Sequence record: OL960581
DNA from: Escherichia phage vB_EcoM_SA20RB
DNA: 64,000 nucleotides
Direction: 5' to 3' (one strand)
Positions 24,321-39,260 of the stretch are shown one piece after another; positions within the stretch are counted from its first letter, which is position 1, and the number at the start of each line of letters is the position of its first letter. The notes beneath the pieces were generated by a model. The model did no database searches and had not been told where the DNA came from. It was given only the letters and a program-made list of their open reading frames with translations. The position numbers and the translations under genes were made by a program.

Positions 24321-24653
24321 TTATTTTACTACTTTCCAATGTTGCATGTCAAGTTTACCAACTTTTTTCATCTTCTCAATTAAGCGTTCGGCACGTTGGC
24401 GGGCTGTAACATAATACCATTCACCCAATTCATTTTGTTCAATTTTTCCAACGATTACTGTATTCAATTCATAAATCCAACCAGTAAAGAAATTATGAAC
24501 TTGAATTGTAAAGGTGAAATCTGTTCCCATACCTTCTGTTGTTTCTACTTCAATAATATCACCTTCAACTGCCATTAAGAACCACATAGTTTCATCATAT
24601 TTACCATTGAAGCATTTAGTTTTAACTGTAGCGTTCAGATTAATCGTTTTCAT
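24321..24653 (-). CDS. hypothetical protein
   Basis: 110-aa ORF; early promoter upstream. Confidence 0.6.
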   Translation of the reverse strand: MKTINLNATVKTKCFNGKYDETMWFLMAVEGDIIEVETTEGMGTDFTFTIQVHNFFTGWIYELNTVIVGKIEQNELGEWYYVTARQRAERLIEKMKKVGKLDMQHWKVVK

Positions 24654-33122: not shown

Positions 33123-34292
33123 TTAAAAATATTTTTTAAAACTCATCATAACTTTATCATCAACATCATTATCAATCTGTGCTACAAGGTAAGATGACAG
33201 TTCTACTTCTTGTGGCGCGGATTGAACATTATCAGAATTAAGATATTCACGAATCCAAGGATACGGGTGTTTAACCGGAGCATCGGTAATTGGGCATGGA
33301 AGACCGCACTGTTTCATACGAGATACAGTTAAGTAATCAATAAAGCTCCACATGCTATTTGTATTTAATCCAGGAACATCACCATCTTTAAATAAATGAA
33401 CTGCCCAGTCTTTTTCTTGACGGTTAACTTCCATGAAAATATCAACTGCTTCTTGTTCACACTCTTGGGTGATTTTAACCCATTCATCACCATCAGTGCC
33501 AAGTTGAAGTTGACGAATAATATATTGGGTGCCTTTAAGGTGAAGCTGCTCATCACGTGCAATGAACTTCATAATCTTGGCATTACCTTCCATGATTTCC
33601 ATGTTCTTATGGAAGTTAAAGGTACATGCGAAAGATACATAAAAACGAATAGCTTCCAATGCGTTGATTACGTGCAGGCAGAGGTAAAGAGATTTCATTA
33701 GTGCTCGTTTAGTACATTCAACAACTTTGCCTAACTCTTCTTTACGAAATCCTTCTGATAAAATTCCTTCATAATCTTCAACCGCATTCTGATATTCACG
33801 AGTCTTAACTAGAACATCATCATAATAGCGACCGATAGATTCAGCACGTTTCATGATAGCTTCATCTAGTACAATCTCATCAAATACCTTCGATGGATCA
33901 GTATAAAGATTTCGCATGATATGAGTATATGAACGACTGTGAATAGTTTCACTAAAAGTCCATGTAGCAACCCATGTATCAAGACTTGGGTCTGAAATTA
34001 ATGACATAAGTACAGCAGACGGTGCACGACCCTGAATGCTATCTAGAAGTGATTGATACTTCAAGTTATTAGTAAAAATATCTTGCTGATACTGAGGAAG
34101 CTTGTTAAATTGTGCAGCATCCATCATCAAGTTTACTTCTTCAGGACGCCAGAAAAATGATAATTGCTTTTCGGTTAAATCTTCAAAAACTTTATGGCGT
34201 TGAATATCATAACGCGCAATACCAAGACCTGAACCGAAGAACATAGGTTCTTTTAAAACATCAACTGGATTTGTATTAAAAACTGTGCTCAT
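33123..34292 (-). CDS. nrdB: ribonucleotide reductase beta subunit (uninterrupted, no intron)
   Basis: 389 aa continuous ORF; T4 NrdB as recalled is 388 aa. Confidence 0.95.
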   Translation of the reverse strand: MSTVFNTNPVDVLKEPMFFGSGLGIARYDIQRHKVFEDLTEKQLSFFWRPEEVNLMMDAAQFNKLPQYQQDIFTNNLKYQSLLDSIQGRAPSAVLMSLISDPSLDTWVATWTFSETIHSRSYTHIMRNLYTDPSKVFDEIVLDEAIMKRAESIGRYYDDVLVKTREYQNAVEDYEGILSEGFRKEELGKVVECTKRALMKSLYLCLHVINALEAIRFYVSFACTFNFHKNMEIMEGNAKIMKFIARDEQLHLKGTQYIIRQLQLGTDGDEWVKITQECEQEAVDIFMEVNRQEKDWAVHLFKDGDVPGLNTNSMWSFIDYLTVSRMKQCGLPCPITDAPVKHPYPWIREYLNSDNVQSAPQEVELSSYLVAQIDNDVDDKVMMSFKKYF

Positions 34293-34343
34293 AAATTTTC
34301 CGCTTAGTTAATAGATAGTGACTCGTCCGTGAGTCAAATTATA

Positions 34344-37165: not shown

Positions 37166-38026
37166 TTACACCGCCATCTTTCCTTTCAAGACACCATGGG
37201 ACTGATAATCTTTGAGAACGAAATCTCGTGCTGTCATATATTCAGTTAACCAATACATTTGAGTTTCAGTATCGCATTGACTGAATCCATTAGGCCAATT
37301 AATACTAAGTTTGCATAGATCCATAGGAGTTCTATTTAATATCTCTTTGCATTGCTCAATATGGTTAGAATAAATGTGTGTATTACCACCCGAGAATACC
37401 AAATCGCCCGGAACTAGTTCACACATGTCAGCAACAATATGTAAAAGAGCAGCATAACTCGCGATGTTAAATGGAAGACCGAGGAAAACATCTACCGAAC
37501 GTTGATACCATTGTAGGTCAAGGTATCCGTTACGCACATTAAACTGATAGAACATATGACAAGGTGGTAATGCCATCTGCTTGAGTTCAGCTGGATTCCA
37601 TGCCGACACAATTTGACGTCTATCATTGGGAAATGTTTTAATACGATTAACAACTTCTACAATTTGATCTACACCACCAAAATCACGCCACTGTTTTCCG
37701 TAAATTGGACCAAGTTCACCGCTATGATAACCTAAGTCTTTGGCCTGGTTTTCGTAGTTTTCATCCCAAATTGTTTTTCCTGCAATTAAAGATCCATGAG
37801 TACGTTGACGTAAATCATTTACGTTAGTACTTCCTGATAAGAACCACAATAACTCAGAAATACATGCATTCCAGGCGAGCTTCTTAGTTGTTACTGCAGG
37901 AAAACCTTTAGTTAAATCCCAGCGTAATTTAGTACCGAACAAAGCAATTGTTCCTGTGCCTGTTCGGTCATCAGTTTCATAGCCGTTTTCAAAAATGTCT
38001 TTAATTAAATCTTGGTATTGTTTCAT
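37166..38026 (-). CDS. td: thymidylate synthase (uninterrupted, no group I intron)
   Basis: 286 aa continuous ORF, same length as the spliced T4 Td; catalytic motif PPCH. Confidence 0.95.
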   Translation of the reverse strand: MKQYQDLIKDIFENGYETDDRTGTGTIALFGTKLRWDLTKGFPAVTTKKLAWNACISELLWFLSGSTNVNDLRQRTHGSLIAGKTIWDENYENQAKDLGYHSGELGPIYGKQWRDFGGVDQIVEVVNRIKTFPNDRRQIVSAWNPAELKQMALPPCHMFYQFNVRNGYLDLQWYQRSVDVFLGLPFNIASYAALLHIVADMCELVPGDLVFSGGNTHIYSNHIEQCKEILNRTPMDLCKLSINWPNGFSQCDTETQMYWLTEYMTARDFVLKDYQSHGVLKGKMAV

Positions 38027-38070
38027 TTAGTACCTTATATAAATTATAATACATTTTATGAAGCTAATAA

Positions 38071-38418
38071 TTAATACGGTTTAGCATCAAATTTTCTTTC
38101 AATTTCAGGCGTAAAATACAATTCTTTACCACGCTTGGAAAAGCGACCAATAATATGATAATTATTCTCATCAAACGTGATATTGCCGATATCCATAGCT
38201 TTCAACCAAATATCGATATTTCTGTCAAGCTTTATATCAAAATTCCAATACGGAGAACTATTACCGAAAATACTACAAGCGGATTCAGTGAAACAACTGC
38301 TATAAATCTTGTCTTTAGGAACTACTAATTGATAGACGCCTTTAATAAACTGAGGACCCTGCCAATTTGGTTGTTTCGCGTCTTTTTCTAATAGAATAGG
38401 GTAATAATTAAAATTCAT
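38071..38418 (-). CDS. hypothetical protein in a frd-td insertion
   Basis: 115-aa ORF occupying a 411-bp gap between frd and td; no motif recognised by eye. Confidence 0.6.
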   Translation of the reverse strand: MNFNYYPILLEKDAKQPNWQGPQFIKGVYQLVVPKDKIYSSCFTESACSIFGNSSPYWNFDIKLDRNIDIWLKAMDIGNITFDENNYHIIGRFSKRGKELYFTPEIERKFDAKPY

Positions 38419-38437
38419 ATTTTCCGCCAGTGTTATT

Positions 38438-39260
<823 letters not shown>

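Follow-up and report, generated by a model that had tools for sequence, protein, structure and literature searches.

The td gene of Escherichia phage vB_EcoM_SA20RB (sequence record OL960581) lies on the minus strand of the 64,000-nt stretch of DNA analyzed here, referred to below as the window, within the usual T4-type gene order of frd, td, nrdA.2, nrdA.1, nrdA, and nrdB. The features that bear on the homing endonuclease I-TevI and its relatives are as follows, with signed numbers counting nucleotides on the coding strand upstream (-) or downstream (+) of the intron insertion site:

37166..38026, minus strand: td, encoding thymidylate synthase; a continuous 861-nt ORF of 286 codons plus stop, with no intron
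37477..37478, minus strand: unoccupied intron insertion site, between codons 183 and 184 (GGT/CTT), in the same phase as in T4
37467..37504, minus strand: equivalent of the 38-bp I-TevI homing site (-27..+11); 32/38 positions identical to T4
37500..37504, minus strand: CAACG cleavage motif (CNNNG), -27..-23; identical to T4 and at the native distance from the insertion site
37485..37499, minus strand: I-TevI spacer of 15 bp; 13/15 identical to T4, with changes at positions 1 (-22) and 4 (-19)
37466..37485, minus strand: predicted primary binding region for the I-TevI DNA-binding domain (-8..+12); 15/20 identical to T4
33123..34292, minus strand: nrdB; continuous, 389 aa, Pfam Ribonuc_red_sm

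That td is a continuous ORF of 286 codons, as an earlier note on this DNA had stated, is borne out by the single 861-nt minus-strand ORF and by the end-to-end match of its product to Pfam PF00303 (Thymidylat_synt; E = 3e-95, residues 2-286 against profile positions 1-266 of 266); the translation also contains the catalytic Cys motif, LPPCHMFYQF. In T4 (NC_000866), the annotated td CDS is in two pieces and encloses I-TevI, and the spliced T4 gene aligns collinearly with that of the window. The window td is not interrupted by a group I intron, be it ORF-less or carrying I-TevI, and the gene is not an intron-containing td of the T4 type. Searches of the window with the td intron (blastn) and with I-TevI, mobE, and the truncated I-TevIII (tblastn) returned chance-level matches only; the best of these, at 24357..24566, sits in a 110-aa ORF without nuclease features and was dismissed. 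An Rfam scan of the whole window likewise gave no group I intron match, a result that is informative for ORF-less introns only. Specifically, an ORF-less td intron serving as positive control was detected at 73.8 bits, and the Intron_gpI model at its gathering threshold misses the full-length T4 td intron (T4 td stretch L001, 7000..9300), probably owing to the ~738-750-nt I-TevI ORF in its loop, so that a negative Rfam scan does not rule out ORF-containing group I introns. The td gene is thus intact and requires no splicing, which matters mainly for its correct annotation.

The window allele is shared by a group of close relatives. The td gene of Escherichia phage vB_Eco_T-01 is 100% identical to it, and those of ime09, G50, CrRp10, and others, all Tequatrovirus, are ~99% identical over td. 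The complete window-type allele was found in 25 records representing 19 distinct phages, every one of them without an intron, and among the IMG/VR relatives no close copy was found, the best full-length matches reaching 82-84% amino-acid identity. Relative to T4 td, the window gene is 76% identical at the nucleotide level, with 86% identity in exon 1 and 59% in exon 2. As a separate observation, part of the C-terminal coding region (~37226..37296; coding nt 730-800, +181..+241) is a strongly diverged cassette with 23-30% nucleotide identity to T4/T2, where the protein reads LSINWPNGFSQCDTETQMYWLTEYMTA in the window versus LVISGLPYKFRYLSTKEQLKYVLKLRP in T4.

Alignment with T4 defines the insertion site to the base. 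The T4 intron comprises 1017 nt and begins after coding nt 549, giving an exon 1 of 183 codons in the alignment, and the T4 junction sequence is ...TTCTTGGGT/TAATTGAGGCC...ACATAATG/CTACCG.... The empty insertion point that had been expected within 37452-37513 is indeed there, at 37478/37477; the exon junction does not lie elsewhere, and the region is not identical to the T4 homing site. Genomes that carry an intron point to the same position. In G2540-3, 121/2022-2B, pSe_SNUABM_01, and TB004, collinearity with the window breaks at exactly 37478/37477 and resumes at the next base, and a 91-nt probe spanning the site also ends at this junction base in intron-carrying records. From -30 to +21, the coding strand reads TATCAACGTTCGGTAGATGTTTTCCTCGGT/CTTCCATTTAACATCGCGAGT in the window and TATCAACGCTCAGTAGATGTTTTCTTGGGT/CTACCGTTTAATATTGCGTCA in T4. 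The close resemblance to the I-TevI site with several silent differences, which the earlier note had pointed out for the 45-nt coding-strand string CAACGTTCGGTAGATGTTTTCCTCGGTCTTCCATTTAACATCGCG (the reverse complement of 37460..37504), also holds, with 37/45 positions identical and every difference synonymous; the encoded peptide, YQRSVDVFLGLPFNIAS, is identical in T4. The changes from T4 to the window across this stretch are the following, the I-TevI target itself extending over 38 bp (PMC2988022):

-22: C>T, synonymous
-19: A>G, synonymous
-6 (37483): T>C, synonymous
-4 (37481): G>C, synonymous
+3 (37475): A>T, synonymous
+6 (37472): G>A, synonymous
+12 (37466): T>C, synonymous
+15: T>C, synonymous
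+19..+21: Ser codon TCA>AGT, synonymous

By this alignment, the homing-site DNA is neither unusually conserved nor unusually diverged, its identity being about that of the whole gene (76%; exon 1, 86%). Its likeness to the T4 site reflects homology of the gene in a conserved stretch of thymidylate synthase and is not due to chance, and 37467..37504 exists only because it encodes the conserved peptide QRSVDVFLGLPFN. The silent differences from T4 are most probably neutral third-position drift.

The cleavage motif of the target is unchanged. The I-TevI motif is 5'-CA^AC/G-3' (CNNNG), in which C1 and G5 are critical (PMC5009752), and the enzyme nicks 23 and 25 nt upstream of the insertion site (PMC5009752, PMC2988022). 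The CAACG at 37500..37504 has both critical bases and places the nicks at these same distances; the predicted nicks in the window fall between 37501 and 37500 on the top strand and between 37503 and 37502 on the bottom strand. The suggestion that substitutions lie within the cleavage motif does not stand, because the "CAACGCT" on which it was based contains two spacer bases, and the sole change there (-22 C>T, the first spacer base) lies outside the motif proper, CAACG, which is that of T4.

Such constancy is expected from the coding sequence. At -27 the C opens a Gln codon (CAR), and at -23 the G is the middle base of an Arg codon (CGN or AGR), so neither can change silently. Consistently, C at -27 and G at -23 occur in 74/74 phage td genes with the QRS motif in the IMG/VR sample, all of which read CA[A/G][C/A]G. 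The title of a 2004 paper by Edgell, Stanger and Belfort reportedly makes the point that I-TevI reads coding-constrained bases of td. The td site is a textbook illustration of an endonuclease that reads bases the host protein cannot change, namely the C of the Gln codon and the G of the Arg codon.

Published work on the spacer and binding region allows the remaining substitutions to be placed. When all 45 single substitutions of the spacer were assayed with an I-TevI-TALE fusion, changes at positions 2, 6, and 8 lowered activity, C3T alone was at background level, and many positions took any base (PMC4065259). Both spacer changes of the window, at positions 1 and 4, fall outside this sensitive set, as determined for the fusion and not for the native enzyme. 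In the same study, the spacers of several natural phage td genes were cleaved by I-TevI-TALE at the T4 level or better, with RB32 the sole exception, at reduced activity (PMC4065259). The primary binding region comprises ~20 bp centered on the insertion site, and I-TevI is generally tolerant of changes in its homing site (PMC2988022). Its affinity for its operator is the same as for the homing site (PMC2988022). The operator, located in the T4 intron, differs from the homing site at +3, +6, and other positions, and the two share CC at +4/+5 and TTTAATA at +7..+13. The +12 T>C change of the window falls inside this conserved TTTAATA block and is the one substitution whose effect the available data cannot discount.

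Phage T2 provides the most telling comparison. All T2 records have an intron-free td, and their junction region is identical throughout. The T2 site differs from that of T4 at -22, -7, -6, -4, +3, and +6, or 6/38 positions, the same count as for the window, with -6C, +3T, and +6A common to both; T2 matches T4 at 14/15 spacer and 15/20 binding-region positions, versus 13/15 and 15/20 for the window. Found in the window only, relative to both T4 and T2, are -19 A>G, +12 T>C, +15 T>C, T at -22, and C at -4. Progeny of T2 x T4 crosses carried I-TevI at 2.1 +/- 0.3 times the input frequency, whether or not mobE was deleted (PMC2790892). Since T2 is equally diverged and is efficiently invaded, a site as diverged as that of the window can be an efficient natural target.

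A further line of evidence comes from natural mosaics, which were found by searching with exon 1 alone. G2540-3, 121/2022-2B, pSe_SNUABM_01, and TB004 all contain an intron within a td gene whose exon 1 is 96-97% window-type; the TB004 intron is a diverged variant, and the other three are T4-type. Scoring was based on 179 diagnostic sites at which the window differs from both T4 and T2, and in the three phages with T4-type introns (G2540-3, 121/2022-2B, and pSe_SNUABM_01) the gene is made up as follows:

td 5' end to about -39, -88, or -100, depending on the phage: window-type
from -39/-88/-100 across the intron to +251: T4/T2-type
remainder of td, from +264 onward: window-type

The type changes within the nearest runs of perfect identity between the two alleles, namely -87..-53 upstream in 121/2022-2B and pSe_SNUABM_01 and +252..+263 downstream in all three; on the upstream side, G2540-3 is more of a patchwork and has window-type sites at -45..-39. 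Between +12 and +251, no perfect-identity run of at least 12 nt was found between window-type and T4-type sequences. Co-conversion around td has been reported (PMC2988022, PMC2790892), reaching up to 2 kb (PMC2790892). The mosaic pattern is consistent with the footprint expected from a break at -23 repaired from an intron-carrying donor. Read in this way, the mosaics illustrate a second textbook point, the persistence in nature of co-conversion tracts on either side of an intron that has moved in.

Co-conversion may also bear on splicing. The T4 exon bases -6..-1 (UUGGGU) can pair with intron bases 9-14 (GCCUGA), whereas CUCGGU in the window and CUUGGU in T2 would each mispair with this guide at 2/6 positions. 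Cleavage 23 nt upstream means that -22..-1 are necessarily replaced by donor sequence, and the donor base is present at -6 in 4/4 mosaics and at -4 in the three phages with T4-type introns; TB004 has A at -4. On the predicted pairing, the window bases at -6 and -4 would not pair with the intron guide unless co-converted. Compensatory P1 covariation between intron variants and exon was considered and rejected, as alternative exon/guide combinations also pair via G-U.

One alternative to a cleavable site is that the window allele is partly or fully refractory to I-TevI, through weakened binding (e.g., at +12 and +15) or cleavage (at -19 and -22), and that this keeps the lineage intron-free. The site carries 8 differences in 45 nt, several of them absent from T2, and spacer composition can lower I-TevI-TALE activity, as with RB32 (PMC4065259). 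Nevertheless, CAACG stands unaltered at its native distance from the insertion site, the published scan did not find spacer positions 1 and 4 to be sensitive (PMC4065259), and the equally diverged T2 is efficiently invaded (PMC2790892). The operator also differs at +3/+6, yet is bound with a reported equal affinity (PMC2988022), and the mosaic phages carry the intron inside window-type td genes. The full window-type allele lacks the intron in 25/25 records, which would fit a refractory site; however, homing overwrites exon 2, with co-conversion of up to 2 kb (PMC2790892), and an intron-free state is therefore expected anyway. Put differently, homing erases window-type exon 2, so all 25 records that retain it are intron-free, and their status was rejected as evidence of resistance because the diagnostic exon is the one replaced. 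A refractory allele is accordingly judged improbable, and the proposal that the substitutions might reduce cleavage is not supported, given an intact motif, spacer positions insensitive in the scan, an equally diverged but efficient recipient in T2, and the mosaics. A related question is repair. Exon 2 has 59% identity to T4 and, from +12 to +251, no perfect run of at least 12 nt, so that a T4-type donor may serve poorly for repair even where cleavage is normal. It is a long shot that the minority td allele of the 19 intron-free phages is a natural invasion-resistant variant, either through weaker I-TevI binding or cleavage (-19, +12, +15) or through starvation for exon 2 homology; if it were, exon divergence and not target-site loss would limit the spread of the intron.

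Two other histories must be weighed. The mosaics could have arisen by general homologous recombination without I-TevI cleavage, in which case they would say nothing about cleavability. T4-like phages recombine very frequently, the downstream junction shared by the three phages (+251/+264) is compatible with one ancestral exchange, and the recipient's original site is erased in the mosaics. Against this, the tract is short (~300-350 nt of exon) and centered on the intron, its upstream junctions vary by phage (-39, -88, and -100), and the junctions lie in the first perfect-identity runs flanking the site, as expected for a break at -23. This origin of the mosaics seems rather unlikely, and it would leave both the T2 comparison and the intact motif untouched. 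It is also conceivable that the intron was formerly present in this allele and was precisely deleted, the present site being a post-intron scar. Loss of introns belongs to the recognized life cycle of homing endonucleases. Degenerate td introns are found in relatives, such as the 262-nt ORF-less one of PD112, but intron-carrying relatives have a T4/T2-type tract from ~-88 to +251, whereas the window is window-type throughout, including -6 and -4, and no T4-type co-conversion tract was seen at 37477/37478 in the intron-free close relatives (25 records). The lack of a T4-type tract around the window site argues against recent loss; a loss would have to be ancient, or else followed by complete re-conversion, and is thus very improbable.

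Taken as a whole, these comparisons favor, with a probability of roughly 0.85, an ordinary intron-free td allele of a Tequatrovirus in which 37467..37504 is a natural I-TevI target whose silent differences from T4 most probably leave it cleavable. The claim of the earlier note that the allele is a potential homing target is thereby supported by the empty site, CAACG at the native distance, the T2 comparison, and the mosaics. Upon co-infection with an intron-carrying relative, the DNA-binding domain of I-TevI would be seated on -8..+12, the linker would measure the distance, and the GIY-YIG domain would cut each strand once within CAACG, at 23 and 25 nt upstream of the insertion point. The break would then be repaired from the intron-carrying td, and the intron would be copied in together with flanking donor exon sequence, replacing -22..-1 and restoring exon bases able to pair with the intron guide. 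The phage may thus be regarded as a potential recipient that is naive to the T4 td intron. An unoccupied td homing site is already known biology, well described among T4 relatives.

The intron-free state is in fact the majority state. An exon 1 probe matched 531 phage records, and the full-length intron (coverage of at least 80%) is present in 197 records. It is thus missing from ~60% of the T4-like td genes in the phage collection, and a few further records carry ORF-less or diverged td introns. For example, vB_vPM_PD112 (MH837626; stretch L089, 1254..1515) has, at the td insertion site, a group I intron of 262 nt without an ORF, which equals the T4 td intron minus nt 95-848, a clean deletion of the loop with the I-TevI ORF, and which scores 73.8 bits with Intron_gpI; by match pattern, CE1 (ON229909) and CJY920 (PQ349265) also carry an ORF-less td intron. 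Introns of the PD112 type represent the endonuclease-free stage of the intron life cycle in natural isolates. Diverged td introns at the same insertion site are present in Shigella phage TB004 (L088) and in the IMG/VR contigs L039 and L067; the IMG/VR set as a whole shows three more diverged td introns at this position. These diverged introns start with TAATTTAGGCCTAGG... or TAATGTTGGCC..., their upstream exons have CAGAG or CAACG at the cleavage position, and they probably encode I-TevI homologues with target preferences of their own.

Two other loci of the window deserve mention. Between frd and td lies an insertion of 415 nt (38027..38437) that holds a 115-aa ORF (38071..38418, minus strand) assigned to phrog_1928, for which a Pfam search gave no match. 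On either side of the insertion stands one copy of an imperfect 15-nt direct repeat, GTATTGTTTCATTTA (38015-38029) and GTGTTATTTCATTTA (38430-38444); the repeat duplicates the frd-stop/td-start junction, which overlaps in T4. The 115-aa ORF is also found in T2, RB32, and G2540-3 and is absent from T4, and its annotation in RB32 describes it as 'flanked by 9 bp repeat'. In addition, nrdB is continuous and is separated from nrdA by 51 nt (region 33123..34343), which leaves no T4 nrdB intron with I-TevIII and no free-standing mobE.

Compared with known systems, the window allele is closest to the td genes of vB_Eco_T-01, ime09, Shfl2, Kha5h, and others, 23/25 of these records being 95-100% identical to it and two 93-94%; all 25 are intron-free, are annotated simply as thymidylate synthase, and show no substantive difference from the window. 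With the T4 td junction it shares an identical peptide, CAACG at -27..-23, 32/38 identity, and an insertion point between codons 183 and 184, but the T4 site holds a 1017-nt intron encoding I-TevI, whereas the window site is empty. T2, the classical recipient of the T4 td intron, likewise has an uninterrupted td of 861 nt, in which the insertion point and CAACG are those of the window, as well as the same 115-aa ORF between frd and td. T2 differs in that its td is 96% identical to that of T4, versus 76% for the window allele (exon 2, 59%), and in having A, A, T, T, and T where the window has -22T, -19G, -4C, +12C, and +15C; its role as recipient is established by published crosses. Finally, RB32 also has a Tequatrovirus td without an intron and with silent changes in the I-TevI target, but its motif is altered (CAAAG) and its spacer has 6/15 changes, whereas the window keeps CAACG and differs from T4 at 2/15 spacer positions.
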